Made by a program: the position numbers and the translations under genes. 64,000 bases of DNA from Candidatus Micrarchaeota archaeon (GTDB lineage: Archaea; Micrarchaeota; Micrarchaeia; Micrarchaeales; CABMGC01). Under the pieces are notes generated by a model. The model saw nothing but the letters and a program-made list of their open reading frames with translations. It had not been told where the DNA came from and ran no database searches. Below are positions 7,591-37,489 of the stretch, piece by piece; the first letter of the stretch is position 1; the number at the start of each line of letters is the position of its first letter. Location of the stretch: NCBI GenBank assembly GCA_021828295.1, contig JAKASF010000002.1, forward strand, positions 407 through 64,406, read 5' to 3'.

Positions 7591-7655
7591 GTGGCCACCA
7601 CTCCGCAGCCTATCACCGCGACGTCTACAGCCTCTGGAAGAGAGCCCATTACCAT
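7591..7655 (-). pseudogene. relic copy of the lpd 5' end (ATG plus 16 identical codons, then frameshift and stop)
   Basis: 7591-7655 aligns with 6471-6536 at about 58/66 identical with one gap. It translates to MVMGSLPEAVDVAVIGCGVVATWPY*, against the Lpd N-terminus MVMGSLPEAVDVAVIGGGVGG. Confidence 0.75.
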
Positions 7656-7773
7656 AAATTCAGGAATACAGCACGAGCAAATCTTAATTAGCTAACGCTG
7701 GACCAAAGCCGTCCAAAACGAATTCACAGATATTTTAATAACCAGTGAATCCACATAGGCTTGAGGGGGAAGC

Positions 7774-18448: not shown

Positions 18449-18463
18449 GAGATCTCCTGCTAT

Positions 18464-18965: not shown

Positions 18966-18984
18966 ATCGCACCCAATTAAGTAG

Positions 18985-19056: not shown

Positions 19057-19165
19057 TCGTTTAGGTAACAATTTACCTGTTAATAGCCATGCATTATAGC
19101 GATTTATATTCATGGGTGTGAGGGACCTATTTTTCCCATCCACTGCTGCACTATTATCCTTTGCC

Positions 19166-20023: not shown

Positions 20024-20055
20024 ACTATTTAAGCTTGTGTATCAAATCTGTTCTC

Positions 20056-21447: not shown

Positions 21448-22011
21448 CTCCTTCCTGCGCCTGAGCAGCGTGTCGAACTCTGGAATCAGGTCTATGCGCC
21501 TGCCCTTTAGCCGCTTGCCGTTCAGCAGTGCCGCCGCGTACCCGGCCAGCTTCCTGTCTCGAGAGAACGCCTCGAATACATTTGGATAGTTGCGCTCCGC
21601 ATGTATCCCGCAGTAGTCTGTGGCCTCAGAGACGACGTTCGCCTTTATCTTGGCCCTGGGGTAGCCACGCTGCTCCATCCTCTTTATCAGCGTGTCGAGG
21701 TGCTCCCTGAGCACCAGGGCGCTAGCGCCTTTTATCGCGATGTCGCACATCAGGTGGCTCTCGAGCAGCACCGCGTCCCCTTTGCTTCTGGCTATCATCC
21801 TTTCCAGCTCGAGCCGCAGCTCGCGCATCTTCACTATCTTGGCCCCCTCCCTGGTGCGGGAGCTGAAAAGCCGTTCTCTGTTGACCACATCGGTGACGTG
21901 TATCACGTCGGTGTGCTTCAACCGCTTTGCCAGAGAATCAGAGAACGTGGTCTTGCCCGTACCAGGCACTCCGGTTATTACAAGGATGCGCCTACGCTTG
22001 CGCTTGCTCAT
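21436..22011 (-). CDS. Fap7/AK6-like P-loop kinase (putative adenylate kinase, ribosome maturation)
   Basis: ILVITGVPGTGKTT gives the P-loop. VLREHLDTLIKRMEQRGYPRAKIKANVVSE matches the Fap7 LID region. Confidence 0.65.
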   Translation of the reverse strand: MSKRKRRRILVITGVPGTGKTTFSDSLAKRLKHTDVIHVTDVVNRERLFSSRTREGAKIVKMRELRLELERMIARSKGDAVLLESHLMCDIAIKGASALVLREHLDTLIKRMEQRGYPRAKIKANVVSEATDYCGIHAERNYPNVFEAFSRDRKLAGYAAALLNGKRLKGRRIDLIPEFDTLLRRRKELAI

Positions 22012-22610
22012 TTAGCTGACCTGGCCTCGATGTCGCTGAGCATGTCGCCTATTATCGCCCTGCTGTTCTCTATCACCAGCACGGGGCTGGTCGGCGGGTT
22101 TATGGTAAGCACGTGGTTCTTGGCACCAGAGAAGATCCACGAACCAAGCCTGTACTGCTTGTAGAGCGCTGACACATCGGCCACGTAGTTAGAGGCGTTG
22201 ACGAGCTTGCCCACGAACGCGTCGAGGTTCTCCTCGTACTTCTCGATTATGACAGCTTCCTCCCTGTCCGGAGCGCGGGTCACGAAGAGCGGCTTTATGT
22301 AAGGAACCCTAGCCGCTGCCGACTTGTTGGTTATCACGGTGTCGACTGCGCGATACTGCGCATCCATGCTCTCCATCTCCGACTCGAGCTTGGTCTGCTC
22401 GTCCTTGAGGTTGTCGAGCAGCGCGTTGAAGTACGAATCTGACTGCGTCCTTATGCCCTTGAGTGCAGTGCCGAGATCCTTCTTGTTCAGGTACCTGCCC
22501 GGGTTCATCAGCAGGCTTCTCAGCGAGATGCTGTAGCTCTTGCTCACTGTGTCGTCAAGGTCTGATATGAAGTTGTCTGTCTCTTCGTCCCACGGGATCT
22601 GCTTGGCCAT
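22008..22610 (-). CDS. hypothetical protein (200 aa)
   Basis: The ORF has genome-typical codon bias. Internal ATG 22610 (MAKQIPWDEETDNF) sits about 30 nt downstream of a TATA-like ttttatat. Its stop overlaps the next gene. Confidence 0.5.
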   Translation of the reverse strand: MAKQIPWDEETDNFISDLDDTVSKSYSISLRSLLMNPGRYLNKKDLGTALKGIRTQSDSYFNALLDNLKDEQTKLESEMESMDAQYRAVDTVITNKSAAARVPYIKPLFVTRAPDREEAVIIEKYEENLDAFVGKLVNASNYVADVSALYKQYRLGSWIFSGAKNHVLTINPPTSPVLVIENSRAIIGDMLSDIEARSAK

Positions 22611-22678
22611 TTCTGCACCAGAATAATCAGCAGCATAGATATAAAATAAGAAAGTTATAAACCTTTTGAGTTGTTTTC

Positions 22679-22915
22679 GTGGAGGAAATCGCCGACAGGA
22701 TAGCAAAGGACATAATCAAGTTCAACGAGAACGTGAAGGTGCTCGACGAGCACGAGCTGGGACCGAAGGAGATTGAGATAGTCAGGCTGGCGAAGAACTA
22801 CTGCGACGATGCCGGGGCGTGGCTAAAGAAGAAGGACTTCTATACCGCCTTTGCCAGCATCTCGTACGCGCACGGACTACTCGACACGCTGCTCAGGCTG
22901 AACAGCAAAGAATGA
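22679..22915 (+). CDS. small conserved archaeal protein (DUF357-like)
   Basis: This 78-aa helical protein has ...FASISYAHGLLDTLL. It has a GTG start and sits directly upstream of trm1. Confidence 0.5.
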   Translation: MEEIADRIAKDIIKFNENVKVLDEHELGPKEIEIVRLAKNYCDDAGAWLKKKDFYTAFASISYAHGLLDTLLRLNSKE

Positions 22916-22919
22916 TTCC

Positions 22920-24005
22920 ATGGAGCGCATAAGGGAAGGGGCTGCCTCGATCGGCGTGGGCGGGGGCGTGTTCTACAATCCCAAGATGGGCAAGCTCAGG
23001 GATATCTCAATACTTCTGCTCAGGGCAGCGAAGATCAGAAAAGCGAAACTGCTCGACGCCACTGCCGCCACAGGAATCAGGGGCATAAGGTATGCGCTTG
23101 AGGCCGGAGTCGTAGATACCACAATGCTTGACATCAACTCAGCCGCTTACAGGAATGCGAAGGCGAACGCGAGACTCAACAGGGTGAAGGCAAACGTGCT
23201 CGGGAAGAGCCTGCAGGACTTTGCGGGCTCGGCGCAACGGGCGTTTGACGCCATAGACCTCGACCCGTTCGGCAGCCCGGCCCCGCTTGTCTACGACGCT
23301 CTCCGGCTGTCGAAGGACGGCACGATCCTCATGGTTACTGCCACGGACACAGCCACCCTGTGCGGGGCCGAGGGTTCGGCGTGCCAGCGGATCTACGGCG
23401 CGAAGCCGATACACAACGAGCTCTGCCACGAGGGCGGGGTGCGCATACTGCTGAATTTCATAGCCAGGAACGCGGGGCAGTTCAACTTCGGCATAGAGCC
23501 GCTGCTGAGCATAGCGGACATGCACTATATGCGCGTGTTCGTGAGGCTGCACCGCGGCGCGAGGGAAGCGACGGCATCCGTCGGCTCTGGCGGGTTCGTC
23601 GCATACTGCAGCAGGTGCCACAACTTCGCATACAAAAAGGGCGTAGTGGCGCAGCCCGACACGACGTGCAACAACTGCGGCGCTCGCATGCAGGCCTACG
23701 GGCCGATGTGGCTCGGCGCCCTGAAAGATGCCAAGCTCGTATCTGAAATGGCGGCGCTCTCATCCAAATATGGGGAAGGCACAAAGAGGTTCGTGACCTT
23801 GCTCAACGAGGAGCTCGACATCCCTTTCTTCTACTCTGTGCCGAAAGCGACCTCGTACCTGAAGATGGGCTCGATACCGATAGACAAAGTCGTGAATGCT
23901 CTCGGGAAGCGCCACAGCGTTAGCAGGACCCATTTTGAGAAGGACGTGATAAAGACCACTGCGGGAATCGGAGACGTGCTCGCGGCCGTGGCTAAGGCGA
24001 AGTGA
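22920..24005 (+). CDS. trm1: tRNA (guanine26-N2)-dimethyltransferase
   Basis: LDATAATGIRGIRYALE and IDLDPFGSPAPLVYDAL are present. A Cys cluster (CSRCHNF...CNNCG) is present. Confidence 0.85.
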   Translation: MERIREGAASIGVGGGVFYNPKMGKLRDISILLLRAAKIRKAKLLDATAATGIRGIRYALEAGVVDTTMLDINSAAYRNAKANARLNRVKANVLGKSLQDFAGSAQRAFDAIDLDPFGSPAPLVYDALRLSKDGTILMVTATDTATLCGAEGSACQRIYGAKPIHNELCHEGGVRILLNFIARNAGQFNFGIEPLLSIADMHYMRVFVRLHRGAREATASVGSGGFVAYCSRCHNFAYKKGVVAQPDTTCNNCGARMQAYGPMWLGALKDAKLVSEMAALSSKYGEGTKRFVTLLNEELDIPFFYSVPKATSYLKMGSIPIDKVVNALGKRHSVSRTHFEKDVIKTTAGIGDVLAAVAKAK

Positions 24006-24861
24006 TCAGGGTTCCGCTCTTGAGCTCCATCACCCTTCTAGGACTGGAGAGGCTGCCGACAACGGCATAACGCCTGCTCTTTTGCACGAACGAGATGCAC
24101 GCCATCACCTTCGGCAGCACGCTGCCCGGTTCGAAGTGCTCTGTCTGGGCCAGTTTTCTGAGCCCGGATGCGCTTACGTGCCTGAGCAGCCTTGCGTTCC
24201 TTGTGTGGAAGCCCGTGAACACTCCGTCAACGTTGGTGAGTATGAACAATGCGTCAGCCTTGATCCTTGCTGCAAGCAGCGCCGATGCCAGATCCTTGTC
24301 GATCACGGCGTTGGCGTACCTGAACCTGCTTCCATGCCTTGTGACCGCTATGCCGCCGCCTCCAGCCGCGATGACTATCCTACCACGGCGCAGCAGCCCG
24401 GTTATCTTCTTAAGCTCCACTATCTCCATGGGTCTCGGCGACGGGACCACGCGCCTGTAGCCTTTCAGCAGGTGCTTCATCACAAACCCGTGCCTGGCGA
24501 GACCGACTGCCTGGGCTTTCTGGTAGAACTCGCCTATGGGCTTCGTTGGGTTTGCGAACTCCGGGTCCCGAGCCGAAACGACGACGCGCGTGTACACTAC
24601 GCTTGCCTTTGCGCCCGCGTTCCTGCCCGCACGCTCAAGGCTTCTTCTGATCTCGGCCCCAACCTGCGCCTCCGTCTGCTTTGTCAGCAGCGCGAGGCTC
24701 CTGCTGGAGTGCAGCGCGAGCGCGCCTACCTGCGGGCCGTTGCCGTGAGTTATGACTATCTCGTCGCCGCGCCCGGAAAGCAGGGCGACATATGCGGAAA
24801 GCTTATTAAGGACCTTGCTGCTCCGGAGGGCATTTCCACCGACGGCAATCACGTACCTCAT
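23992..24861 (-). CDS. arcC: carbamate kinase
   Basis: The amino-acid kinase fold is indicated by VIAVGGNAL and ITHGNGPQVG. The protein is 289 aa. Confidence 0.8.
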   Translation of the reverse strand: MRYVIAVGGNALRSSKVLNKLSAYVALLSGRGDEIVITHGNGPQVGALALHSSRSLALLTKQTEAQVGAEIRRSLERAGRNAGAKASVVYTRVVVSARDPEFANPTKPIGEFYQKAQAVGLARHGFVMKHLLKGYRRVVPSPRPMEIVELKKITGLLRRGRIVIAAGGGGIAVTRHGSRFRYANAVIDKDLASALLAARIKADALFILTNVDGVFTGFHTRNARLLRHVSASGLRKLAQTEHFEPGSVLPKVMACISFVQKSRRYAVVGSLSSPRRVMELKSGTLITSP

Positions 24862-25007
24862 AGAAATTCATCGACGACAAGAATGCTGCATATATGACTG
24901 TCTTATAAAAACACAATTAATAAATACCAGGAGCTGCTTAAATACAATTACACAGGGGAAGACGGGGATTCTGGGACGGCAATGGGGTGCCGGAAGGGTG
25001 GGAAAGC

Positions 25008-25388
25008 ATGGAAATGGGGAGAATGGAAAGTAGGGGAATAGAGGAAGGAGTGCCAGCCTACGCGCGCAAAGTTTGTGCGAGCGACGAGGCTGAGTACGCG
25101 GCTGAGGTCGCGGAGGACAAGGACCTCGTATACCTTATAGAAAACACCTGCATCCACTGCAACAGGCTGATGAGCAAGAGCGAGGTCAAGATACTGCCCC
25201 CGAGCTACATACAGGAGCACGACCAATACGTCGGCGCGGGCGTGGTGAAGCGCAGGCTGATGTGCCTGCAGTGCTACAACACGCTGAGGAGCACGGCAAG
25301 GGAACGGGTGAAGTTCGACAGGTTCAGAAACAAGAGCAGACTGGGCTTTGTCAAGAACGCGCTGGTAAGGGTACTCAGCAGCGAATAA
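25008..25388 (+). CDS. hypothetical protein with CxxC...CxxC zinc-ribbon
   Basis: CIHCNRLM ... CLQCYNTL is present. ATG 25008 is preferred to GTG 24987. Confidence 0.45.
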   Translation: MEMGRMESRGIEEGVPAYARKVCASDEAEYAAEVAEDKDLVYLIENTCIHCNRLMSKSEVKILPPSYIQEHDQYVGAGVVKRRLMCLQCYNTLRSTARERVKFDRFRNKSRLGFVKNALVRVLSSE

Positions 25389-25448
25389 GAGGCGGAGCGG
25401 CAGACCGCGAAGCCAGAGCTACTGTTTCTGCACACCAGTAAGCGCAGC

Positions 25449-25844
25449 CTACTTATACGGAAGGTTGATGCCGCTGATTGCGTCGGGGCTCTGTTCGTCT
25501 CTCAGTTCAAGCTTGAACGCTTCCTCTCTCACAAACCCATCCACGTATACGCCAATGTAATCGTCGAGAATCTCGCGATGCTTGTCTAGTGCTGCTTTCT
25601 CGCTCTCGCTCATTGATCCGTATAGGGCGTCGAGCTCCTTCTGCACGCGCTCCGTTGCCCTGCTGATGAAATTTTCAACCATCGTCTTGAGGGCCTCGCC
25701 ATCGACCCCATGAGACGCATACAGGTTTGTCCCGGCCCAATCGAAGTACTTGTGCGCCGTCTCCCTCTCCTTAGGGCTCAGCATTCGCAGCGAGATCTCG
25801 GGCCCGCGCGCAGTGACCTCTTTGACCAGATGCTTCCCATCCAT
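25449..25844 (-). CDS. hypothetical protein (131 aa)
   Basis: This is a clean ORF with genome-typical composition. No recognisable motif was found. Confidence 0.5.
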   Translation of the reverse strand: MDGKHLVKEVTARGPEISLRMLSPKERETAHKYFDWAGTNLYASHGVDGEALKTMVENFISRATERVQKELDALYGSMSESEKAALDKHREILDDYIGVYVDGFVREEAFKLELRDEQSPDAISGINLPYK

Positions 25845-25919
25845 GCCGTATGTCGCCGGAAATTCCTTGCACGCAAAAGTTTAACAACCATTCGTACAGG
25901 ACAGACGGGAGCCGCAGGC

Positions 25920-26660
25920 CTACTTCTTCGAGTGCACGGCCACCATGTGGTAGTTCTGCTCGAAGCCGAGCGCCGACTTGAACGCGTTCGTGTCCAGCGT
26001 TATGGTGCTGTCCGAGTATGGATCGTTTATGTAGAACGTATCCTTGTCGTAGCCCTTGACCACGACCCAGTGGGGCATGGAGTCAAGGTACGAGTTGACG
26101 ATGCGCGCATCGATGAGCACTATGGGAATGTGGCCCGAAGAGAGCGCCTTCTTTATCGAGACCAGCGAGACGACCCCGTGGTCCTCCTCGACGCCGGCCT
26201 TCTCGCTCTTTCCCTTTATCTCGTTGAACGAAGCGGTAAGCGTATCGAGGTTGACGTTCTCATAGACCGCCATCTTCCTCTCGTAGCCCTCGTTCTTCGT
26301 GTTGCTGACTATGCCGACGTTTGCCCCGCGCTTTGCGAGCGCGTACGCGAGCCCGTACTTGCTGCCGTACCAGACGCTGCCGTTCACCGCCTCCTGCCAT
26401 ATCTCATACTCCTGCTCGCGCTTGAACTTGAAGCTGGGGCTTATGAACTTGAGAACCATCATCGCGCAAGCCGCAGAGCTCGTGAAGTCCTCTGTCTGTG
26501 GATAATGGGGTATGTCCAGAAGTACCTTGTCCTTCAGCTTCGCCTTCTTTATCTTGCCGATCACAGAATGCGCAGGCGCGCTGCGCTTTGCAGGACTGCG
26601 TTTAACGCTCTTCCTAGTCGCCTTTGACTTCCTTGCCTTGGTTCTCGTTTTCTTTGCCAT
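25920..26660 (-). CDS. papain-like cysteine peptidase (C39-like) with poly-basic N-terminus
   Basis: Q...SSAACAMMVL gives the Cys and ...MPHWVVVKGYD gives the His, in the spacing typical of C39-like peptidases. The N-terminus is MAKKTRTKARKSKATRKSVKRSPAKR. Confidence 0.5.
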   Translation of the reverse strand: MAKKTRTKARKSKATRKSVKRSPAKRSAPAHSVIGKIKKAKLKDKVLLDIPHYPQTEDFTSSAACAMMVLKFISPSFKFKREQEYEIWQEAVNGSVWYGSKYGLAYALAKRGANVGIVSNTKNEGYERKMAVYENVNLDTLTASFNEIKGKSEKAGVEEDHGVVSLVSIKKALSSGHIPIVLIDARIVNSYLDSMPHWVVVKGYDKDTFYINDPYSDSTITLDTNAFKSALGFEQNYHMVAVHSKK

Positions 26661-26696
26661 CGTAACCACCCTAAGCCACCCAAGGACGCAAGCGGG

Positions 26697-26782
26697 TGCA
26701 GGGGGAGAGATTTGAACTCACGCAGGCCTATGGCCAACAGATCTTGAGTCTGCCGCGTTTGACCAAGCTCCGCCACCCCTGC
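26697..26782 (-). tRNA. tRNA-Leu (anticodon CAA), class II with long variable arm
   Basis: Hand-folded. The acceptor is GCAGGGG/CCCCTGC. The anticodon arm is GCAGA-CTCAAGA-TCTGT. The variable arm is GGCC-ATA-GGCC. The T arm is GTGAG-TTCAAAT-CTCTC with one U-U mismatch. Confidence 0.85.
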
Positions 26783-26906
26783 ATGCTATTGATTGCCAGG
26801 GATAACTTAAAATGTCTTCGACTAATAGTATATTGGGGTTATATTTAAACGTTGACGTTAAAATCGGCTTAGGTTTATAGCACTTTTCCGTCGGGGTTTG
26901 CTGTTT

Positions 26907-29849
26907 ATGGAATTTAAGAAGCTGAGCGATGTCAAGTTTGAGCTCGCAAGGGACGAGAGCAAAGGCATGCGAACCAACGTTATCGCGTACGCGACAGAGC
27001 GGATGCTCGACAAGATAAAACAGGACAGGACTGTGTCGCAAGCTGTGAATGTCGCGGGCCTGCCCGGGATAGTAGGCAATGTGCTGCTCATGCCAGACGC
27101 GCACGAGGGCTACGGCATGCCAATCGGGGGCGTGGTGGCGTTCGACGCCGAGGCAGGAATAGTGTCGCCGGGCGCGGTAGGGTTTGATATAAACTGCCTG
27201 CACCCAGAGGCACGCATTTACGACGCGGAAGGCTCTTGGCATAGAATACGTGACTTCAAGAGTAAAACTGTAGACTTACTAAGTTTCGACGTGCGCGCCG
27301 CAGAGTGCCTCAAGACAAACGCTATTCTTTTGATTGAGAAGCAATGCGATAAGCCAATGCTTCGCATAGTGACCTCTTTGGGCAAGGAAATACTTGCAAC
27401 CGAAGACCACCCGATACTTACCGATCGGGGTATGGTCAAGACGGGAGAACTCAGGGTTGGGAATAGGATCGTCTCGACTGGTCTTGACGGTCTGGAGTTC
27501 ACTGAGCCGGGCAACAGGACAATCCTGTCTGAGGAGCGGCTTATAGAGACACTAAGGAGCCTCGGCATTACAGAGAAGGGCAATGCGCTCGCTCAGGTAC
27601 TGAATGCACTGAGGCGAGCGGGGCTAAGCAGCATAAACCTCAGCCATCCCAAGCTTCACATTCTGTTAAAGTTGCTCGGTTTGGTTTTTGGAGATGGAAC
27701 TGTACCAAACACAAGAGGAGGCATATCCTATACTAAATTCTATGGTAAAAAGGAAGACCTGGTTAAGGTTCAGGAGGACATACAAAAGCTTGGATTCCAT
27801 GCGGGCTTGTACCACAGAAGTAGACATCATAAGATAAACACAGTATACGGTACGAGAGAATTTGATTTCGAAGAATACTCGCTTTCGGTCGGCGCCGCGG
27901 CTTTTAGCTCATTACTCGTGTGCCTTGGTGCACCCTTTGGTAATAAATCGGCACTGTCTTACCGGGTACCAGAGTGGATCATGAATGCTGAAGATTGGCA
28001 GAAGCGGCTTTTTGTTGCTGCTTATTTTGGAGCTGAGATGTCAAAGCCTCAAGCGCATAATGGATACAACTTCCAACCGCCTGCTTTCAGTGTAAACAAG
28101 CTTGAGGAATTGGGCGACAATGCTGTCGCATTCCTTAAAGACATCGCGAGCGTGCTGAACTCTTTGGGAGTGCAAACGATGCAGCCTGCAGTTGTCGAAG
28201 GCTATAGGTATGCTGGCAAAAGGGGAAAGACGCTGGGCTTTAGGCTGGGTGTGCTGTCAAATACAGAGAACTTGGTACGATTCTTTGGCTCTGTTGGCTA
28301 CATTTACAATAACGAAAAGGAAAGGCTCGCGAGCCTTGCAGCGCTATACCTGGGCTATTTGAGTAAAATAAGATCCTCGCGTGACGCAACGAGAGCAAAA
28401 GCCATAGAAATGAAGTCGCAGGGAATTGACAGTAGCGCTATAATCAGGCAGCTCGCTAATGGCCGTGCGGCGGAAAGCTTTGTAGAGCATACGCTGTGGG
28501 GGAGAACGGGAGCTGCTAGGATATGGAAAGACGTGAAGTTCAGGGATTTCGCAGACAAGTTTGAGATTGGAAAAAGTGGCTTGGTATATGATGCGGTTGA
28601 AAGCAAAGAAGTAGTTCCTTATGAAGGTAAGGTATTCGACCTTACGATGAACCACGAAAGCCACAATTTCATTGCAAACGGAATTGTGGTGTCGAACTGC
28701 GGCGTGAGGCTGATAAAGACCGGGCTCACGGAGAAGGAGGTCAGACCGAAGCTTGGCGCGCTCATGGACGCGCTCTTCAAGAACGTCCCGAGCGGAGTTG
28801 GCAGCAGGCTCAAGACAGGCTTCACTGAGCAGGACCTCAGGAAGATAGCCGAGGAGGGGGCCAGCTACGCAATAGAGAAGGGCTATGGCTGGAAGGAGGA
28901 CGTTGAAAGGATAGAGGAGAACGGGACGATGGTGAGCGCCGACTTCTCGAAGGTGAGCAAAGAGGCGAAGTCGCGCGGACTCGACGAGCTCGGAACACTC
29001 GGAGCCGGAAACCACTTCCTTGAGGTCCAGAAAGTGGAGAGGATATTTGACGAAAGAGTGGCGGACGAGTTCGGGCTCCGCAGGGATCAGGTGGTGGTGA
29101 TGGTGCACTGCGGCTCACGCGGCTTCGGACATCAGGTATGCAGCGATTACCTTCGCAGGCTCGCCGAGCGCCAGACGAAGAGCGGCACGCAGGTGGCCGA
29201 TAGGGAGCTCGCATATGCGGAGATAGGGAGCAAGGAGGCCGATGACTATCTGGCGGCGATGAACAGCGCCGTCAATTACGCATTTGCGAACAGGCAGATG
29301 ATAATGCACAACATAAGGAAGAGCTTCGAGGAGACCTTCGGCAGGAGCGCAGACGCGCTAGGCATGCACCTGCTCTACGATGTGGCGCACAACATAGCCA
29401 AGCTTGAGGAGCACACTGTTGACGGAAAAAGAACAGCGGTATATGTACACAGGAAAGGTGCGACAAGAGCTTTTCCGAGGAACAGCGAAGGCATACCCAA
29501 GGAGTACAGGGGCATAGGCCAGCCTGTGATAATACCGGGCAGCATGGGTACGAGCAGCTACATACTCTGCGGCGAGGAGGGCTCGATGAAAGAAACTTTC
29601 GGTACCACGTGCCATGGGTCCGGCAGACTTATGTCAAGGCACCAGGCGCTGAGGGACTTCCCTCCGGAGAAAACGTTCCAATCGCTCAAGAGCAAGGGGA
29701 TAGAGATACGCGTGCGCACGAGGAAGCTGATAAGCGAAGAGGCGGAGTGGGTGTACAAGAACGTCGACGACGTGGTCGGCGTTGTGGAAAAGGCCGGAAT
29801 ATCAAAAATCGTCTCGAAGAACGTGCCGATAGGAGTCGTCAAGGGCTAG
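26907..29849 (+). CDS. rtcB: RNA-splicing ligase RtcB, interrupted by one intein
   Basis: The exteins read ...LMPDAHEGYGMPIGGVVAF...GAVGFDIN / CGVRLIKTG...HCGSRGFGHQ...GTTCHGSGR, which are the RtcB metal and His motifs. The spliced size is about 479 aa. Confidence 0.9.
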   Translation: MEFKKLSDVKFELARDESKGMRTNVIAYATERMLDKIKQDRTVSQAVNVAGLPGIVGNVLLMPDAHEGYGMPIGGVVAFDAEAGIVSPGAVGFDINCLHPEARIYDAEGSWHRIRDFKSKTVDLLSFDVRAAECLKTNAILLIEKQCDKPMLRIVTSLGKEILATEDHPILTDRGMVKTGELRVGNRIVSTGLDGLEFTEPGNRTILSEERLIETLRSLGITEKGNALAQVLNALRRAGLSSINLSHPKLHILLKLLGLVFGDGTVPNTRGGISYTKFYGKKEDLVKVQEDIQKLGFHAGLYHRSRHHKINTVYGTREFDFEEYSLSVGAAAFSSLLVCLGAPFGNKSALSYRVPEWIMNAEDWQKRLFVAAYFGAEMSKPQAHNGYNFQPPAFSVNKLEELGDNAVAFLKDIASVLNSLGVQTMQPAVVEGYRYAGKRGKTLGFRLGVLSNTENLVRFFGSVGYIYNNEKERLASLAALYLGYLSKIRSSRDATRAKAIEMKSQGIDSSAIIRQLANGRAAESFVEHTLWGRTGAARIWKDVKFRDFADKFEIGKSGLVYDAVESKEVVPYEGKVFDLTMNHESHNFIANGIVVSNCGVRLIKTGLTEKEVRPKLGALMDALFKNVPSGVGSRLKTGFTEQDLRKIAEEGASYAIEKGYGWKEDVERIEENGTMVSADFSKVSKEAKSRGLDELGTLGAGNHFLEVQKVERIFDERVADEFGLRRDQVVVMVHCGSRGFGHQVCSDYLRRLAERQTKSGTQVADRELAYAEIGSKEADDYLAAMNSAVNYAFANRQMIMHNIRKSFEETFGRSADALGMHLLYDVAHNIAKLEEHTVDGKRTAVYVHRKGATRAFPRNSEGIPKEYRGIGQPVIIPGSMGTSSYILCGEEGSMKETFGTTCHGSGRLMSRHQALRDFPPEKTFQSLKSKGIEIRVRTRKLISEEAEWVYKNVDDVVGVVEKAGISKIVSKNVPIGVVKG
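27195..28697 (+). mobile_element. 501-aa intein with LAGLIDADG-type homing endonuclease domain inside the RtcB DINCGVR motif
   Basis: It starts with Cys1 (CLHPEARIY). Block B is ATEDHPILT. Endonuclease blocks LLGLVFGDGTV and VAAYFGAEMS are present. It ends ...GIVVSN followed by +1 Cys. GC content is lower than in the exteins. Confidence 0.85.
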
Positions 29850-30304
29850 TTTACAGAAACCTTTTTCTTGTTTTTGAACTCAAAGTGGATAGGCCAAATT
29901 ACAAGTTGCTTTGGTTCCGCTTCTTCATCCAAACTTATTCTTGACCTCAACAGCCCTGCAAACCCTCCGAAGATTTCGAATAGCTCTGGGATTTTGTTGT
30001 GCACATCTATGTTTGAAATATCCTGAACGATTGTAGGCAAGGCCTGATTAAGCAAAGGGATGTGATCTATAACAACTCCTGCCGCCAAACCCGCTCCGAG
30101 CCCGAGGGCGGTGCCGGTTAGTGTGAGGGCTGCCTGGGTAGCGATGTATTTCTTGCTTGGAACTGTCATAGTAAAGGTGTAGGTGCTTTTACTTAGATAA
30201 GAGTTAAACCTGACCCATTTCTTCTCGTATTTGGTAGCCCAATCGCTCTTGGCTTTAATTTCCATGACAACTAGAAAGCGTTGGCTTTTGGCATTTATAA
30301 ACAT
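29846..30304 (-). CDS. hypothetical membrane-associated protein (152 aa), AT-rich cassette gene convergent with rtcB
   Basis: It starts MFINAKSQRF... and has a hydrophobic Gly/Ala segment (ALTLTGTALGLGAGLAAGVVI). The N-terminal 46 aa of track ORF 29846-30442 are antisense to an rtcB relic, so ATG 30304 is preferred. Confidence 0.45.
   Translation of the reverse strand: MFINAKSQRFLVVMEIKAKSDWATKYEKKWVRFNSYLSKSTYTFTMTVPSKKYIATQAALTLTGTALGLGAGLAAGVVIDHIPLLNQALPTIVQDISNIDVHNKIPELFEIFGGFAGLLRSRISLDEEAEPKQLVIWPIHFEFKNKKKVSVN
29862..29876 (+). terminator. oligo-T tract (tttttcttgttttt) 13 nt after the rtcB stop
   Basis: Two T5 runs were read directly, in the style of an archaeal intrinsic terminator. 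Confidence 0.35.
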
Positions 30305-30334
30305 TAACTTGAAATTCTGTGCGCCTAGAGGCGC

Positions 30335-30397
30335 GAGAAAGCGGGCATATTGAAAATAGTTTCCAAGAACGTGCCAATGGGCGTTGTCAAGGGTTGA
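30335..30397 (+). pseudogene. relic copy of the rtcB 3' end (last 20 codons plus stop)
   Basis: It translates to EKAGILKIVSKNVPMGVVKG*, against the RtcB C-terminus EKAGISKIVSKNVPIGVVKG* (29787-29849). Nucleotide identity is about 75% with mostly synonymous differences. An in-frame stop precedes it. Confidence 0.7.
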
Positions 30398-31007
30398 CAA
30401 TCTCATACCACTGAGGCACAACCTTTGCATCCTCTGTCTCAAATTCCGATACGACCTCGTCTATCTTTTCTTCCTCTTCGCGCTTCTTGCTTCTGCGCAG
30501 GGAAGGATGTAGTATTGCGGTAAGTTTGTGGTTCCTAAGCGACCCTTTGAGCACACCATCTTCTATTGCGAACGAAATTTCCTCCGCGATGACTTTTGCA
30601 AGTTTCTTTTCTTCCTCGGTAAAGTGCTTGCTTTGGGCTATATACATGGCGGCCTTTTCGGCTTGCTCGATGCGAAGCTGCTGATGCGGAACCACCATCA
30701 CAGACAGCACAGGCAGTGGTTTGCCGAAATCGCCTCTTTTGATGAGCACCCACCCTTTGTTGATTAGTTTCTCGGTCTCTTCGCTTGTGAGTTGAGATTC
30801 AAGGATGCTCCATTTGTCAGACCTGTACTGGGCGTAAATGCTCCTGCCAGTTTCAGCAAGTGCTTTCTTGCCTCTTCTTGTATCAACGAGCCCTGCTTCT
30901 TCAAATATGTCGAGAAGCCTGTTTATTCTCTTGCCAGTCTCTTCTTGCTTCGCTTCAAGAAGCGTTAGGGCTTGCATCCTTTTTGTATTTGGCTGCTGCA
31001 CTTCCAT
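30387..31007 (-). CDS. hypothetical protein (206 aa), AT-rich
   Basis: This is a clean ORF for a charged helical protein. Its last 3 codons and stop lie antisense within the rtcB relic. Confidence 0.55.
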   Translation of the reverse strand: MEVQQPNTKRMQALTLLEAKQEETGKRINRLLDIFEEAGLVDTRRGKKALAETGRSIYAQYRSDKWSILESQLTSEETEKLINKGWVLIKRGDFGKPLPVLSVMVVPHQQLRIEQAEKAAMYIAQSKHFTEEEKKLAKVIAEEISFAIEDGVLKGSLRNHKLTAILHPSLRRSKKREEEEKIDEVVSEFETEDAKVVPQWYEIVNP

Positions 31008-31063
31008 CTCAAGCGCCTAGGGCTTAAATGGCGGATGGAAATTTATAAGACTATCCTCAAGGA

Positions 31064-31876
31064 TTACATCTTCGATGCTTCTTCAGTGAGTCTTATCCTG
31101 TAGAGCAGCTCGCGCGACATCGAGACCTCGACAGATGTGCTGAGCGTCGAAAGGAGCGACTCCGCCTCCTTTAGCTTGCCTTGCTTTGCAAGGTATTTTG
31201 CAAGATAATAGTAGGCGTTCATCTCTCCCGAGCCCAGCGCAGCGAGCAGGCTCGCCTGCGCCTGCTTCGTGTCCTTCTCCACGCTGTAAACGAGCAGCGC
31301 ATATTCCGAGTATGTGCCGCGCTTGTCCAGGCTTTGGAGAGTCCTGAGCGTCGTGGCGGCATCGACATATCTCTGCAGCCTTATCTCCGACATGAACTTC
31401 ATTAGCACCATGGTGGGATCGACCTGTATGTTGCCCTGCAGCTCGCCGCCCACTATCCTTATCACCTTGAAGAAGCACTCCTTCCACTTCATCGTGAGGT
31501 CGAGGCTTGCCCGTATATTATCGGCATTGGGCTCCATGAAGCCCATCTGGTTGTAGTCCTTGCTCTGGAACTCGATAGTCGAGAGGTTGAGGTAGAAAAC
31601 GCCAAGAAGGTAGAGCTGCTCGGGGTCCATGTTCCCCTTCATCAGCTGGTCCGCGCTCTTCAGCGCAGCTTCTGTGCTGTTGGCGTCAAGCTGCGCCTTG
31701 ATGGCTTCGAATGGCGATGATGCGCCGGCCTGCACGCCCGCGAACTGCTCGCAGAAGTTGCAGAATGAGGGCCTGCCGCTCGCCGAGAGAGTGCTTGTGC
31801 CGCAGTAGGGGCACTTCTGCGCTACCGGCCTGTAGCTTGCAAGCAGTTTTAGATACTTCCTGCCGTCCAGCACCAA
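31064..31876 (-). CDS. hypothetical protein with N-terminal zinc-ribbon and helical-repeat (TPR-like) body
   Basis: CPYCGTS...CNFCEQF is present at the N-terminus. The 270-aa body is helical. Confidence 0.55.
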   Translation of the reverse strand: MVLDGRKYLKLLASYRPVAQKCPYCGTSTLSASGRPSFCNFCEQFAGVQAGASSPFEAIKAQLDANSTEAALKSADQLMKGNMDPEQLYLLGVFYLNLSTIEFQSKDYNQMGFMEPNADNIRASLDLTMKWKECFFKVIRIVGGELQGNIQVDPTMVLMKFMSEIRLQRYVDAATTLRTLQSLDKRGTYSEYALLVYSVEKDTKQAQASLLAALGSGEMNAYYYLAKYLAKQGKLKEAESLLSTLSTSVEVSMSRELLYRIRLTEEASKM

Positions 31877-31941
31877 AACACACTGCTTACTGGTCGTTTA
31901 AAGTTATATAAGTGCGGTTTTGAATATCGCTGCGCGGATCT

Positions 31942-32250
31942 CTACTTCTGAGTCGCAGGGGCGCACAGGTAGACATAATGGCCTTTGGCCGAGCTCACCC
32001 TTGAACTTCCGAAGGAGGTCTTCACCCTCCTCGCAACTTCTTCAGAGCCGAGTTCGCCATCTTCTGCCACGGACACCACGAAGCCGAAGTCGCCGCTTGT
32101 GATAATCACCTTCCTCACTCCCCTGCATGCGGCTATCCGCCTAGCGACCTCGTGCGAATTTTTTCTTACATCAGGATGCAGTAGCAAGAAGCTCTCACTT
32201 GCTGTCCTCATTCGTATGTTTCCGTTTCCCAACCAATCGCCTCTAATCAA
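31942..32250 (-). CDS. stand-alone Lrp/AsnC ligand-binding (RAM) domain protein (module 2)
   Basis: FLLLHPDVRKNSHEVARRIAACRGVRKVIITSGDFGFVVSVAEDGE is present. It is a paralogue of 4111-4353. The start could alternatively be ATG 32211. Confidence 0.6.
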   Translation of the reverse strand: MIRGDWLGNGNIRMRTASESFLLLHPDVRKNSHEVARRIAACRGVRKVIITSGDFGFVVSVAEDGELGSEEVARRVKTSFGSSRVSSAKGHYVYLCAPATQK

Positions 32251-32480
32251 TCAGCGTAAACAACCCGCCAGACGTTCTCTTTCTCCTGTATCCACTTTAC
32301 CGGCCTCTTGTCATCGGATTGGGTGGAGGTGGGCTGCTTAGCCTTCGGGTGGGGAATGCTAATGCTGGGGTCAATAGGATAGTAGCCGTTCTGAGAACGA
32401 ACAAAACCCATGCCAGCCCACGGAGATAGAATATGCATCTGCTGATTTATAAATATTTTACTTTTTTTAAATAAGTTCAT
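32247..32480 (-). CDS. 77-aa mini-protein ending ...RPVKWIQEKENVWRVVYAD (module 2)
   Basis: Its C-terminal ~34 aa are conserved with 4359-4499. Its stop overlaps the start of 31942-32250. Confidence 0.5.
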   Translation of the reverse strand: MNLFKKSKIFINQQMHILSPWAGMGFVRSQNGYYPIDPSISIPHPKAKQPTSTQSDDKRPVKWIQEKENVWRVVYAD

Positions 32481-32510
32481 ATATTTTTCGGAAATATAAA
32501 ATCAGAGGGC

Positions 32511-33509
32511 ATGCTTAACAAGACGTCTAGGATGCTGCTTAAAGAACTATGCACGAACGCCAGGATTAAACTGCCAGCTTTGTCGAAGAAGTTTGGGATA
32601 TCCAGATACCTTTTAGCGCGGGAAATCAGGAACCTGGAAAAGGAATTGGAGTTGCATTACACGTTGGAACTAGACAACGCAAAACTCGGCTTCGGCACAA
32701 CGCACGTCATGCATCTGAAGTTCGTGAAGAGGCCCAGCTCTGAAACGCTCAAGGGAATCCTCAACAAAATACCCTCCATACAGCTTGCGTTGCTTACAAA
32801 AGGCGACTTTGACCTTCTCTGCTTTGCAGTGACCAGGACACCGGTTGAATACTCGCAGATAGAGATAGCGCTCCAGCTTCTTCTGGAGGAATACGGCGCA
32901 AAGGTTAAGTCTGCGGAGGTGACGCTTGCGCGCCTCGGCTTTGTGCCGCTCGACAGCAATCTGATAAGCAGGTCAGCACTTGAGAGCGAATACAAAGAGG
33001 TGCTCATCAGGCTGAACGCCAACTCGCATGCCAAGATCAGCGAGATAAGCAGGTCCATAGGTATAAGCGATGACCTGGTGCGGTACTATATAGCAAAAAT
33101 GGAGCGCGAAGGGATAATCAAGAGATATACCGCTGTGGTAGGCAAGCCGAACACGGGATTCACCATAGCCTACCTTGCGAATTATGCTGTAAGGGAGAAC
33201 CTCCAGAGCAGGATAGACAAGGAAAGGAGAGAGATAATCTTCACAGACGATGAGCAGAGCGATGTAAATGACTTCCAGTCTATGTTTTCAACAACAGGCA
33301 GTGAGCAAACGCTTAACATTGCGACATACAGGAACAGGAAGTATGGACTTGAGCACAGCGTGAAAGCGCATAATAGAATTTACGCGACGGACAGGCCGGA
33401 GGTTGTGTCAGCTGAGATTATAAAACCAGTAAAAGGTGTCATGCCGTTCAGATATCTCAACGTAAAAGAGGTATACGACACCTCCAACTGGCCTCTCGAG
33501 TTCTCCTAG
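32511..33509 (+). CDS. tandem (two-unit) Lrp/AsnC-like transcriptional regulator (module 2)
   Basis: Two HTH plus RAM units are present (SRMLLKELCTNARIKLPALSKKFGIS..., EVLIRLNANSHAKISEISRSIGIS...). It is a homologue of 2828-3844. Confidence 0.7.
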   Translation: MLNKTSRMLLKELCTNARIKLPALSKKFGISRYLLAREIRNLEKELELHYTLELDNAKLGFGTTHVMHLKFVKRPSSETLKGILNKIPSIQLALLTKGDFDLLCFAVTRTPVEYSQIEIALQLLLEEYGAKVKSAEVTLARLGFVPLDSNLISRSALESEYKEVLIRLNANSHAKISEISRSIGISDDLVRYYIAKMEREGIIKRYTAVVGKPNTGFTIAYLANYAVRENLQSRIDKERREIIFTDDEQSDVNDFQSMFSTTGSEQTLNIATYRNRKYGLEHSVKAHNRIYATDRPEVVSAEIIKPVKGVMPFRYLNVKEVYDTSNWPLEFS

Positions 33510-33569
33510 CCTGGGACCAGCCTCGGCATATTTTAAAAATACGAATTTTTGGTTAATATTTTTTAAATT

Positions 33570-33599
33570 TTGGAAGGATTTAAAACGGAATCCTTCCAA
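33570..33599 (+). promoter_or_regulatory. perfect 11-bp inverted repeat ttggaaggatt-N8-aatccttccaa, 8 nt upstream of the transporter ATG
   Basis: The arms are at 33570-33580 and 33589-33599, read directly. It could be an operator or a 5'-leader hairpin. Confidence 0.5.
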
Positions 33600-33607
33600 T
33601 CAAAATC

Positions 33608-34873
33608 ATGAGAATACAGGTTCACGGCTACGTGCTGCTCTTCAGCGCGCTGATGTTCACTGCGATAACACCGATAGCGTACGTGCTGGGCAACGGCATA
33701 AACCCCATAGCGCTAATGCTTCTCGTCTCGCTTGCCGGAACCCTCATATCGTTTGCGCTCTCCTTTGCCAGGGGCACGCTTCATCACGTCAAAACATACT
33801 TTACAACAAGGAACGGTGCGTTTGCGATACTCTCCTTCGGGATACTCGCCTACACCCTCCTCTCGCTGATTTTTAGCTATGTAACCCACTATGTGAACGC
33901 CGATCTCGTGGCGGTGGTCTACAGGTCGTGGCCGCTCATGCTGATACTGATGGCGCCGGTGCTCATGCGCGAGCGCATGACAAAGTATGATGGCCTGGGA
34001 GTGATTATCGGTTTTTCAAGCCTCGCCGTCACGCTTGTCGGAGGCACAGCAATAAGCATACCGGAGCAGTATCTGCCATTCGTGCTGCTGCTTCTGCTCG
34101 GCGCATTCTTCGACGCATTCGTTTCCGGAGTTTCAAAGAAGTATAACTATGAGCTCACAAGCTCTATATTTGCTTACAACGCGGTTTCGTTTGCAATCTT
34201 CTTGCCGCTGGCCCTTCTGACAGGCTCTCTCAACTTCTCAGGCTTCGGTGCAAACACCGCTTTGGGCGTCGTCTTGCTCGGAGCGGTGCAGAATGTGCTG
34301 CTTACCTTCCTGTTCGTCGCCTCTTTTAGGCGGGTAAGGACCTCGATAGCCAGCAATGTCTTCATAGTCAGCCCGTTTTTCACAATGTTGCTCAGCGCTT
34401 TGTTCCTGAGTACTCCAATCGAACCCTACTACCTTGTGGTGGCGTTCGGAGTAGCGTTTGGCATACTTATACAGCACATGCAACCGAGAGCTGCAAACCG
34501 TGTGACTAAGAGGAGAAACTTGGCCATATTCGATGTAACAGGCACGTTCCTAGATAACCCAAACCCTGAAATATCCCGTTGCATAACCGGCGATGGCCGC
34601 GCCTTTGCGATAAGGATAAGCAAAAGCAGTTTCGATGAACAGTTGCACAGTCAGATATTCAAGAGCCGTTATTGCTTGGTGTTTACCAATGACGCGCCAC
34701 ATCAGGACGCACGGGGCGAGGAGATGCGCCTTATAGGAGGGGCTATGGCTCTCAAGAAGGGGGAGGCTGCGCTCATCGGTATGGGTGACCCTGATGAGCT
34801 AGAGGCAGCATTCGATGAATTTCTCAGAGCCCAACCTGGCGCAGTAAAGCAAGAATCCGCCTTTCAAGCCTAG
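33608..34873 (+). CDS. DMT/EamA-family membrane transporter with the same unknown C-terminal domain (module 2)
   Basis: The multi-TM N-terminal part is followed by the tail IFDVTG...GDGRAFAIRI...ALIGMGDPDELEAAFDEF. It is a paralogue of 1448-2728. Confidence 0.7.
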   Translation: MRIQVHGYVLLFSALMFTAITPIAYVLGNGINPIALMLLVSLAGTLISFALSFARGTLHHVKTYFTTRNGAFAILSFGILAYTLLSLIFSYVTHYVNADLVAVVYRSWPLMLILMAPVLMRERMTKYDGLGVIIGFSSLAVTLVGGTAISIPEQYLPFVLLLLLGAFFDAFVSGVSKKYNYELTSSIFAYNAVSFAIFLPLALLTGSLNFSGFGANTALGVVLLGAVQNVLLTFLFVASFRRVRTSIASNVFIVSPFFTMLLSALFLSTPIEPYYLVVAFGVAFGILIQHMQPRAANRVTKRRNLAIFDVTGTFLDNPNPEISRCITGDGRAFAIRISKSSFDEQLHSQIFKSRYCLVFTNDAPHQDARGEEMRLIGGAMALKKGEAALIGMGDPDELEAAFDEFLRAQPGAVKQESAFQA

Positions 34874-34948
34874 GCTTTCAACTAATAAGCTGCACAGCGT
34901 TTATTCGCATGCTCTGCGACTCTCTTGAGGACGGCTACACTTAGGCCT

Positions 34949-35617
34949 TTACTTCTTCTGCAGCGCCACGAAGAGATGCATCTTCGAATAGGGGGCTATG
35001 TCTATCTTCTCTGCAACCTTGAACTTTCCAGACACTGCTTCCAGGAACTCCTTGAATACCATCTCGGGCTGCTTGACAACGTCGATGCTCTGCGACTTGA
35101 TGGCCACATAGGCGTAGCCGCCTTCTTTCAGGAGCTCCGCGTTTCTCAGGAGTATGTCAGCCTGGTCCGGAGCGGCTATGTCCTGGTAGAGGACGTCGCA
35201 GATTCCAGTGTCGGATGAGTATGCCTCTGTGTTTCTCGCATCCTGCAGCATCGGCAGCATGTTCGCACGCGATTCGCACGCCTTGAGTAGGTCGCGCATG
35301 CTCCGCTCCGATATCTCTATGCAGTACACTATACCCTGCCCGCCGACTATGTCGCTGACGTGGCTGCTTGTGGTGCCTGTGGCTGCGCCGAGGTAAAGGA
35401 CCTTGGCCCCCTCTTTTATGTGCAGCTCCTTCAGCCCGTTGATTATCGCTGCCGCGAGTTTGCTCCTGTACGGATTCCAGAGCCGGTACTGTTCGCCCTC
35501 GTAGTCTACGAGCTCCTCGTCGTAGACCCTGTTGCCCCTCACCAGGTTCTTGGTTGCGAGCTTGTTGTCTATCTTGTATACCCCATCGAAGATCTGCCTG
35601 AACTGCATCAGAGTCAC
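34949..35617 (-). CDS. flpA: fibrillarin-like rRNA/tRNA 2'-O-methyltransferase
   Basis: YRLWNPYRSKLAAAI and VLYLGAATGTTSSHVSDIV match fibrillarin. The protein is 222 aa. Confidence 0.9.
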   Translation of the reverse strand: MTLMQFRQIFDGVYKIDNKLATKNLVRGNRVYDEELVDYEGEQYRLWNPYRSKLAAAIINGLKELHIKEGAKVLYLGAATGTTSSHVSDIVGGQGIVYCIEISERSMRDLLKACESRANMLPMLQDARNTEAYSSDTGICDVLYQDIAAPDQADILLRNAELLKEGGYAYVAIKSQSIDVVKQPEMVFKEFLEAVSGKFKVAEKIDIAPYSKMHLFVALQKK

Positions 35618-35680
35618 TGATTACATTTTGTTGCAAGCAGATTAAAACATTTAGGTAGCATCATTAAATGTCGTGAGCGC

Positions 35681-36658: not shown

Positions 36659-36786
36659 GGCTGCTTCAGCCAAAGGGACTTATCCTAGCGGGTTATGAGA
36701 AACATATATAATAGTTTCTACATAAAAAGAGAAATCTTTATATATAAGTTAATTGATAATACATATTGAGCTTAAAGGGGGATAAC

Positions 36787-37407: not shown

Positions 37408-37489
37408 AAATACTGGATTGTCGTAGGCACCAGAAAAACGGCGCAGCCAAATCTATTTAAATTTGGCAAGTGTCTCGTATATTGCGACC

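Follow-up and report, generated by a model that had tools for sequence, protein, structure and literature searches.

A duplicated rtcB terminus brackets a single-gene cassette without an integrase in a Micrarchaeota genome and marks a probable integration scar

The gene for the tRNA-splicing ligase RtcB in a Candidatus Micrarchaeota archaeon (assembly GCA_021828295.1) is followed by a second, diverged copy of its own 3′ end, and a 485-bp cassette with a single orphan gene, g139, lies between the two copies. The arrangement was found in a stretch of 64,000 nucleotides (nt) of contig JAKASF010000002.1 (positions 407 to 64,406), referred to here as the window. We read the downstream copy, termed the relic, as a displaced terminus left by the insertion of foreign DNA that carried a substitute rtcB end, and assign a probability of about 0.9 to this reading. 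Contigs of a Micrarchaeota (DPANN) metagenome-assembled genome (MAG) match the window without a difference, and three public assemblies of the organism are identical across the part of the region that each of them covers.

The last 20 codons of rtcB encode EKAGISKIVSKNVPIGVVKG, and the relic, which lies on the same strand, encodes EKAGILKIVSKNVPMGVVKG, each followed by a stop codon (Table 1). The two copies are 548 nt apart. They agree at 47 of 63 nt (74.6%), or at 78% across a 59-nt ungapped repeat, with an abrupt loss of similarity at both edges and a longest identical run of 11 nt. An in-frame TAG (30326-30328) three codons 5′ of the relic renders the rtcB frame untranslatable at this place. 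When all 127,882 six-frame positions of the window were scored with BLOSUM62 (mean -20.7, standard deviation (sd) 9.3), the relic peptide reached a score of 87 compared with 28 for the runner-up, and the match in the rtcB frame is unique within the window. An initial annotation, made from the letters alone, had proposed the duplicate, the in-frame stop before it and an identity of about 75% with mostly synonymous differences. All three points were borne out, and the match persists under formal alignment of both ends.

The 16 nt differences between the copies are distributed 0/2/14 over codon positions 1, 2 and 3 (P = 1.2e-5 under a uniform distribution), corresponding to 12 synonymous and 2 non-synonymous codon changes. 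Third positions are saturated, with 7 of 21 identical, while 40 of 42 first and second positions agree. Since third positions are saturated while the protein is conserved, the two copies, judged by this pattern, diverged as the ends of functioning rtcB genes in different lineages. The codon-position bias likewise upholds the earlier proposal that the relic stems from a coding-constrained rtcB end of another allele. Placed among the true rtcB ends of relatives, both copies fit the clade, 63 nt being too short to resolve their position within it.

Gene order in the clade runs from a C39 peptidase through tRNA-Leu and rtcB to a convergent TPR gene and fibrillarin. The spacing between rtcB and the TPR gene is 1-49 nt in L005, L006, L008, L009, L012, L034, L085 and L086 (L numbers denote loci used for comparison). 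The window holds 1,214 extra bases at this junction, with a GC content of 0.46 vs 0.57, which comprise g139, the relic and a further orphan gene, g206. The AT-rich patch noticed in the initial annotation is thereby retained, with its extent corrected to 29850-31063 and g206 included. The sole homologue of g206 is P0004 (67% identical), encoded in L084, a contig of another Micrarchaeota MAG, and g206 is absent from other relatives. By its flanks, which show 97-100% nucleotide identity over window positions 18316-26290 and 98-99% beyond 35100, L084 is assigned to the same species as the window. Its gene order is the same. An intein-less rtcB of 479 amino acids (aa) converges directly on the g206 homologue with an 11-nt overlap, and g139 is absent.

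In the window, it is the relic into which g206 ends, as the initial annotation had stated, and the overlap again measures 11 nt. Because this geometry matches the overlap of rtcB and the g206 homologue in L084, the relic represents an rtcB end in the ancestral position. The comparison shows the relic to have the place and content expected of the displaced original rtcB end, still lying against g206. A search of relatives for loci in which a relic-type sequence forms the true end of rtcB had been proposed from the start; run here, it yielded this uninterrupted junction of L084. The empty site is equivalent rather than isogenic, the local sequence being 62-82% identical.

The working rtcB remains complete. 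Its Pfam match extends to the final position of the RtcB profile (426/426), and its resident end encodes the conserved C-terminal peptide of the clade. These data support the idea that a substitute terminus keeps rtcB whole, in agreement with the initial description of an accessory cassette that sits exactly at the rtcB terminus and leaves the gene intact.

To compare the origin of the two ends, we considered as informative those sites at which resident end and relic differ and L084, the a priori comparator, matches one of them (n = 12). In order along the repeat, these sites read RRRR followed by LLLLRLLL, where L084 matches the resident end (R) at 4 of 4 sites on the left and the relic (L) at 7 of 8 on the right. 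A single switch between repeat nt 18 and 24 fits 11 of the 12 sites (permutation P = 0.027; Fisher test of 4:0 vs 1:7, P = 0.010, post hoc), a pattern shown by none of 14 other relatives. Within the left 18 nt the relic is identical to L084 at 10 positions and the resident end at 14, and within the right 45 nt at 40 and 34 positions, respectively. Reassembled accordingly, the host end H (GAAAAGGCCGGAATATCAAAAATAGTTTCC...GGTTGA) is identical to L084 at 54 of 63 nt, compared with 124 of 150 in the adjoining rtcB, and encodes the canonical clade peptide EKAGISKIVSKNVPMGVVKG up to the stop codon. The element end E matches L084 at 44 of 63 nt and carries an odd Leu. The blastn alignment of L084 to the downstream segment begins at 30353, where the inferred crossover stretch AAAAT starts. 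The relic is probably a mixed end rather than purely the old one, with a left part (18 nt) that looks element-derived and a right part (40 nt) that looks host-derived.

These observations can be united in a model in which the foreign DNA consisted of a ~470-bp g139 promoter-plus-gene module joined to its own copy of the last 21 rtcB codons. This DNA would have recombined with the chromosomal rtcB end and displaced the original one, through one reciprocal crossover of a circular form (Campbell-type integration) within the short identical stretch AAAAT. The working rtcB would now terminate in element-supplied sequence, with an attL-like end made up of host nt 1-18 and element nt 24-63, and the relic would be the reciprocal, attR-like chimera of element nt 1-18 and host nt 24-63. 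The essential ligase would stay intact, since its end is faithfully mimicked by sequence that the element brings along. As neither the cassette nor the window contains an integrase, the element may have been mobilised in trans, may be the stump of a larger decayed element, or may have entered by host recombination on microhomology. We consider the odds about even for the Campbell-type reading as a whole, with trans-mobilisation or microhomology-mediated exchange included. In E. coli, integration of a circle by a single crossover duplicates the homologous segment (PMC3240628).

Several points weigh against this account. Neither an integrase nor a transposase was found in the 485-bp cassette, in any of five repeat-bracketed inserts or in the 64-kb window. 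The test for chimerism comprises 12 informative sites and one comparator, with synonymous sites near saturation, so that a P of ~0.03 is only suggestive, and the two copies agree over no more than 5 nt where the crossover is inferred. The repeats at rtcB junctions (63, 15 and 12 nt) share only the stop-codon region, which disfavours one common site-specific recombinase. Searches of public collections revealed neither a circular form nor a parent element, nor did they turn up the cassette at rtcB in a second genome. Finally, since the whole surrounding block is diverged from L084, the insertion can neither be dated nor be assigned to this lineage as opposed to a donor lineage.

With att-type integrated elements the cassette shares the flanking direct repeats, the restored rtcB frame and the empty site in a close relative. 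An encoded integrase or recombinase was looked for and is lacking, as the cassette holds g139 alone, without a family match, and neither Pfam nor public annotations show an integrase in the window; we therefore describe the cassette as working like an integrase-type element, not as a proven member of this class. It also shows the hallmark of integrase-less islands, att-type sites at both ends with no recombination genes inside, which likewise applies to an island in L003 described below. An integrase-bearing counterpart that uses the rtcB end was sought in 90 loci and in public collections without success, the inserts of relatives at the rtcB/TPR junction contain no integrase, and the long rtcB-end repeat is absent from all other rtcB loci (80 found).

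The block around the cassette deserves attention, as it bears on the question of a foreign rtcB. In a fine profile, identity to L084 falls within the C39 gene and recovers only near the end of the TPR gene, so that tRNA-Leu is spanned as well (Table 1). Protein identities to L084 within the block are 77, 82 and 92% for the segments of RtcB, 67% for g206 and 71-74% for the TPR protein, and equal between-species values. Four-fold sites are saturated for every block gene (identity 0.29-0.49 to L084), which allows no split of the block. From this divergence, we conclude that in one of the two strains the whole 5.5-kb block, relic included, has not shared the history of the remaining genome. Adjacent window positions 31850-35100 show an intermediate identity to L084 (92-96% in nucleotides, 0.86-0.90 at four-fold sites), which suggests a further, older recombination tract beside the divergent block.

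The rtcB gene of the window, for which the public call starts at 26907 and gives 980 aa, contains an intein at ~27198-28694, recognised by the Pfam families Intein_splicing and, weakly, LAGLIDADG_3. Its limits were set by alignment with the rtcB of L084, from which the intein is absent. An apparent start of the divergence at the intein site, seen in blastn averages, was rejected, as the drop lies at ~26,300 within the C39 gene in the fine profile. Intein homing with co-conversion of the flanks was rejected as well, since this would centre the converted tract on the intein, whereas divergence sets in ~900 nt before it and reaches beyond rtcB into the TPR gene. A link of the insertion to the arrival of an intein-bearing rtcB allele, also raised in the initial annotation, is plausible but unproven. 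As a separate observation, contig breaks fall within rtcB in three public assemblies of the organism, in the intein (~27707-27716) in two of them and in the C-extein (29560) in the third, which suggests that strains are heterogeneous or that a repeat occurs here in the source communities.

Among the alternatives, the one we take most seriously, while considering it rather unlikely, is one-sided (anchor) recombination, also termed homology-facilitated illegitimate recombination. Here, linear DNA of a related Micrarchaeota lineage, with a foreign, possibly intein-bearing rtcB allele followed by g139, would have entered by a homologous left crossover, with its tail joined illegitimately 21 codons before the resident stop. 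The outcome would be a foreign rtcB 3′ part, g139 and an untouched native terminus. In favour of this scenario, the RtcB exteins branch outside the clade of L084 and L004-L008, whereas the TPR, C39 and fibrillarin proteins pair with L084; the RtcB distance to L084 lies 3.3 sd above the TPR-based expectation, and the window RtcB has 25 private substitutions vs 2-9 in relatives. The intein-less rtcB of L084 fits as well, none of the five repeat-bracketed inserts carries an integrase, and repeats of 63, 15 and 12 nt resemble variable illegitimate joints at a homology border. For type VI secretion system (T6SS) and Rhs loci, this model has been put forward to account for displaced 3′ ends (PMC5361080).

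One-sided recombination, however, predicts a wholly host-like relic and a resident end that is foreign throughout, while the left 18 nt of the relic are less L084-like than those of the resident end and a single switch is seen, even if the statistics are weak. Moreover, 21 of the private RtcB substitutions precede nt ~29,214, none falls at 29,214-29,652 and 4 cluster at 29,655-29,679. The clear foreign signal fades ~570 nt before the repeat, and continuity of the seemingly foreign tract, which includes the intein, into the cassette and g139 is not demonstrated. The phylogenetic discordance of RtcB was for this reason rejected as proof of one-sided replacement: although genuine, it does not come with a foreign signal that extends up to the cassette. 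In E. coli, anchor-type recombination of linear DNA gave deletions and it was circle integration that gave duplications (PMC3240628). On its own, the scenario also leaves unexplained that the same cargo gene occurs in the tRNA-end-bracketed island of L003.

Less probable still is the notion that a larger provirus or plasmid integrated at the rtcB 3′ end by means of its own tyrosine integrase and was later deleted down to g139. The mechanism would be that of the Campbell-type reading, with a mobile unit that was never small. The att-like chimeric repeats would be expected from such an event, and L003 shows a larger, 2.1-kb version with extra AbiE cargo and the same gene beside an intact target end. 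DPANN genomes are compact and prone to deletion. The repeat length, too, falls within the archaeal att range (PMC6563490). Yet the cassette shows no sign of further element genes or pseudogenes and leaves only ~20 nt (30314-30334) for any remnant. All five bracketed inserts would have to have lost their integrase independently, and no integrase-bearing relative was found in viral, metagenome, plasmid and phage collections.

In-place tandem or target-site duplication of the rtcB end at insertion, followed by divergence, is highly improbable: although the perfect 12-nt repeat around the L010 insert shows that identical target duplications can arise at this junction, an untranslated copy, with a stop codon upstream and no start, would decay at all positions at least as fast as synonymous change accumulates in the working copy, and the codon-position distribution given above, with first and second positions nearly all conserved, excludes this. 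A transposon or insertion sequence (IS) with target-site duplication was rejected, since terminal inverted repeats and a transposase are missing and the repeats are only 75% identical. Equally little credence can be given to the idea that the similarity is incidental to a real gene on the opposite strand, namely the 186-aa product that public gene calls start at 30406 and run antisense through the relic. The only close homologue has 139 aa and starts at what is an internal MEIKA in the longer product, with in-frame stops immediately upstream; the TATA box falls inside the supposed N-terminal extension, this extension has no homologue among 5.8 billion proteins, and the match in the rtcB frame is unique in the window. 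The public call is flagged here as a mis-annotation.

The bracketed open reading frame (ORF) is most likely g139 with 139 aa, starting at ATG 30265, rather than the 152 aa of the initial annotation or the public 186 aa. The remainder of the initial description, a single AT-rich orphan gene on the minus strand whose stop overlaps the rtcB stop, was confirmed. The start is supported by the closest homologue P0002 (74% identical, aligned from MEIKA to the end, the only close match in 5.8 billion proteins), by the stops upstream of its own start and by the placement of the TATA box TTTATAAA (30294-30301), 28 nt ahead of the ATG. Further upstream lies the motif TTCAAGTT (30306-30313), conserved as TTCAAGT.AAT in the contig of the homologue, L003. 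The promoter function of this region is inferred from archaeal promoter geometry. As promoter motif and 139-aa gene are both shared with L003, the unit common to the two places appears as a ~470-bp promoter-plus-gene module. The cassette is AT-rich, with a GC content of 0.44 compared with 0.57 in the rtcB exteins. Of its ~70 nt outside the g139 ORF, ~50 belong to the conserved promoter. Scans for repeated motifs, bacterial-type promoters and terminators gave nothing meaningful.

An exhaustive HMMER search showed g139 to belong to a family of ~120-145-aa proteins (P0002, P0109-P0130) with the conserved core G.G..G...DHIPY.N..IP...IDV.GN.DGL.GL.GG..G...SG..LD, and this newly defined family consists of small orphan proteins. 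No match to g139 was found in Pfam, PHROGs, PADLOC, NCBIfam or PDB sequences. The fairly confident AlphaFold2 model (predicted local distance difference test (pLDDT) score 83) displays a β-sheet, three helices, one of them Gly/Ala-rich, and β-strands, without a structural neighbour in a Foldseek search of the PDB, and g139 is modelled as a small protein with hydrophobic helices. Close relatives of g139 or a parent element were not found in viral contigs, Joint Genome Institute (JGI) metagenomes, plasmids or phages. Remote family members showed no convincing flanking repeats on their short contigs, and the family alignments are too diverse for a locus scan.

In L003, the g139 homologue is part of a 2,084-bp segment together with a complete AbiEi/AbiEii system. 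This island is flanked by a 40-nt direct repeat (L003 1-40 and 2085-2124, 36/40 identical) of a tRNA 3′ end, the distal copy of which has a degenerate T-stem. The contig begins inside the tRNA, and there is no integrase inside the island.

A parallel drawn in the initial annotation between rtcB and lpd, a second gene of the window, was also confirmed, in that the 5′ end of lpd is repeated around a MNT/HEPN gene pair. The case spans 5175-7655 on the minus strand: the first ~57 nt of lpd recur at 7655-7598, 52 of 57 positions being identical and 4 of the 5 differences synonymous. MNT (6965-7510) and HEPN (6537-7049) lie between the copies, and the HEPN stop abuts the lpd ATG. The lpd relic retains its ATG and would encode a 25-aa peptide. 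The L084 genome has this arrangement too, which therefore predates the split of the strains; for the same reason it provides no clean test, as the L084 genome and a second assembly both carry the relic and no empty site was found. Immediately upstream of the MNT start, at 7520-7559 on the minus strand, stand two tandem 20-nt repeats (TTATATATCAAACGATAGTA twice), which are probably the promoter or operator of the MNT/HEPN pair. A VapB/VapC (PIN) pair at 4554-5164 directly follows the lpd 3′ end, so that lpd is flanked on both sides by toxin-antitoxin modules.

By comparison of gene order, the rtcB/TPR junction is an insertion hotspot across relatives, a recurrent landing site in Micrarchaeota with at least 8 different inserts (Table 1). 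In L004, a 15-nt rtcB-end relic, GTTGTGAAGGGCTAG, is present at the far end of an unrelated single-gene insert (7141-7155 and 8369-8383), with 2 synonymous differences from the own end of this rtcB and colinear with the empty junction of L005. L010 shows the perfect 12-nt repeat mentioned above (7152-7163 and 7733-7744) across both stop codons, likewise around an unrelated single-gene insert. Long terminus relics (≥16 aa) in 1.09 Mb of loci are restricted to the rtcB and lpd cases of this genome; short ones are detectable only by inspection at the nucleotide level. A candidate in L028 was rejected, as it consists of tandem pilin-like paralogues. Elsewhere in the window, a 1.83-kb segment (35620-37444) that holds a Methyltransf_33 gene and an ORF of 206 aa stands where L084 has 18 nt of spacer between fibrillarin and a PAS kinase. 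Since it has no flanking repeats, terminus duplication is one outcome among several.

Table 1 Features of the rtcB region and of related inserts. Coordinates refer to the window unless another locus is given.
Feature	Locus	Coordinates	Strand	Remarks
lpd 5′-end relic	window	7598..7655	-	ATG + ~18 codons; 1,119 nt upstream of working lpd start 6536
Divergent block	window	26300..31850	.	62-82% identical to L084, flanks 92-100%; contains rtcB, cassette, relic, g206, TPR
rtcB (tRNA-splicing ligase)	window	26898..29849	+	983-aa ORF; Pfam RtcB 4e-163
Resident terminal repeat, attL-like	window	29787..29849	+	nt 1-18 look host-derived, nt 24-63 element-derived
Inferred crossover zone AAAAT	window	29805..29809	+	partner 30353-30357
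g139	window	29846..30265	-	139-aa orphan; Gly/Ala-rich hydrophobic helix; stop overlaps rtcB stop (CTAG)
Putative g139 promoter	window	30294..30313	-	TATA box and upstream motif, both kept in L003
14-nt near-palindrome GCGCCTAGAGGCGC	window	30321..30334	.	abuts left edge of relic; single occurrence in window
Relic of rtcB 3′ end, attR-like	window	30335..30397	+	last 11 nt = g206 3′ end
g206	window	30387..31007	-	206-aa orphan; ancestral convergent neighbour of rtcB in this species; overlaps relic by 11 nt
TPR-like gene	window	31064..31876	-	270 aa; clade-wide convergent rtcB neighbour; far boundary of hotspot
Insert at rtcB/TPR junction	L004			368-aa orphan
Insert at rtcB/TPR junction	L007			AAA_18 P-loop protein
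Insert at rtcB/TPR junction	L010			152-aa orphan
Insert at rtcB/TPR junction	L011	7208-7663		IS200/IS605-type Y1 transposase TnpA; Pfam Y1_Tnp 2.4e-25
Insert at rtcB/TPR junction	L016/L046			GH15 enzyme
Insert at rtcB/TPR junction	L088-L091			211-212-aa orphan

The closest parallel of the displaced end is found in E. coli, where e14 in icd leaves the C-terminal pseudogene icdC with mostly synonymous differences (PMC13626634). Like e14 and phage 21, both in icd, the element here occupies the terminal part of a housekeeping gene, replaces the lost 3′ end by one of its own and leaves the displaced end as a pseudogene fragment on its other side. In contrast, e14 measures ~15 kb and has its own integrase and excision functions, whereas the cassette amounts to 485 bp plus a 63-nt repeat with one gene and no recombinase, its host is a DPANN archaeon and its repeats are far more diverged (75% identical). 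The thaumarchaeal elements of Krupovic et al. 2019 are reportedly multi-kb and equipped with integrases or casposases, as opposed to the single promoter-plus-gene module described here. Of 68 integrated elements in Thaumarchaeota, 14 reside 3′-distally in protein genes, and their att repeats measure 8 to ~26 bp; in Crenarchaeota, att repeats span 29-69 bp (PMC6563490). The repeats reported here fall within these lengths. Shared with the present case are direct att repeats over a gene end, supply of a new stop and verification against the empty sites of related genomes (PMC6563490).

Orphan arrays in Rhs, CdiA and T6SS loci have been attributed to homology-facilitated illegitimate recombination (PMC5361080). 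In those loci as at rtcB, an old 3′ end that was displaced downstream by DNA arriving with an anchor in a conserved gene persists as an orphan fragment. The displaced ends of those loci are variable toxin domains with immunity genes that are kept by selection, whereas the one reported here is a conserved, non-functional stub of 20 codons, and the repeats look reciprocally chimeric. In streptococci, cis-mobilizable elements (CIMEs) at the fda 3′ end consist of cargo without recombination genes that is bracketed by att repeats and would rely on the integrase of a related element for its mobility. The rtcB cassette resembles them in being integrase-less and in having att-type repeats at a gene 3′ end. 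CIMEs are, however, kb-scale, and no cognate integrase-bearing element at the rtcB end was seen in the case at hand. CIMEs are mentioned in PMC7563491.

The scar at rtcB is thus of a known kind, here unusually small and free of an integrase, and is set apart by its one-gene size, the missing recombinase, rtcB as the target, the Micrarchaeota host and the strongly diverged repeats. From our knowledge and a literature search, we are aware of no report of rtcB as an integration target or of a case in Micrarchaeota. In single-nucleotide detail, the locus records the gain of an accessory gene by a ~1-Mb episymbiont genome with the essential RNA ligase unharmed, which matters in a genome with almost no intergenic space. 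It offers a concrete, testable case of a repeat-bounded mini-cassette without a recombinase in archaea, accompanied by two sister examples with toxin-antitoxin or abortive-infection genes. Should such cassettes be mobile, they would offer DPANN lineages an uncomplicated way to exchange genes; little is known of the mobile elements in this group.

As a speculation that we hold to be improbable, ultra-compact DPANN genomes might exchange accessory genes such as g139, AbiE and MNT/HEPN as integrase-free terminus-mimic cassettes of 0.5-2 kb. If so, the end of a tRNA or of a conserved essential gene would be copied in each cassette, and this mimic would serve both as a portable recombination site and as a guarantee that the target remains intact after insertion. 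Cassettes would hop between related genomes via host recombination alone or via a shared trans-acting recombinase, and gene termini would be the main landing pads in genomes without intergenic space.

Apart from these loci, the window contains two paralogous clusters (2792-4499 and 31942-33509), each with a double-helix-turn-helix regulator of AsnC type and small proteins resembling Lrp ligand domains. Two small ORFs of these clusters have near-identical C-terminal 18 residues, PVKFVQEKENVWRVVYAD and PVKWIQEKENVWRVVYAD, and the second cluster occupies a different synteny position in L006 and L011. Beyond tRNA-His (52273-52345) follows a run of ORFs without a Pfam match, e.g., 53119-53649, 53477-54541, 55927-56910 and 59545-61162, interspersed with annotated genes for a hexapeptide transferase (57009-57755), AP_endonuc_2 (58709-59548) and a methyltransferase (61230-61832). 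A HerA/TrwB-like ATPase is encoded after this run at 62250-63815, and positions 52273-63815 as a whole may represent an integrated element.

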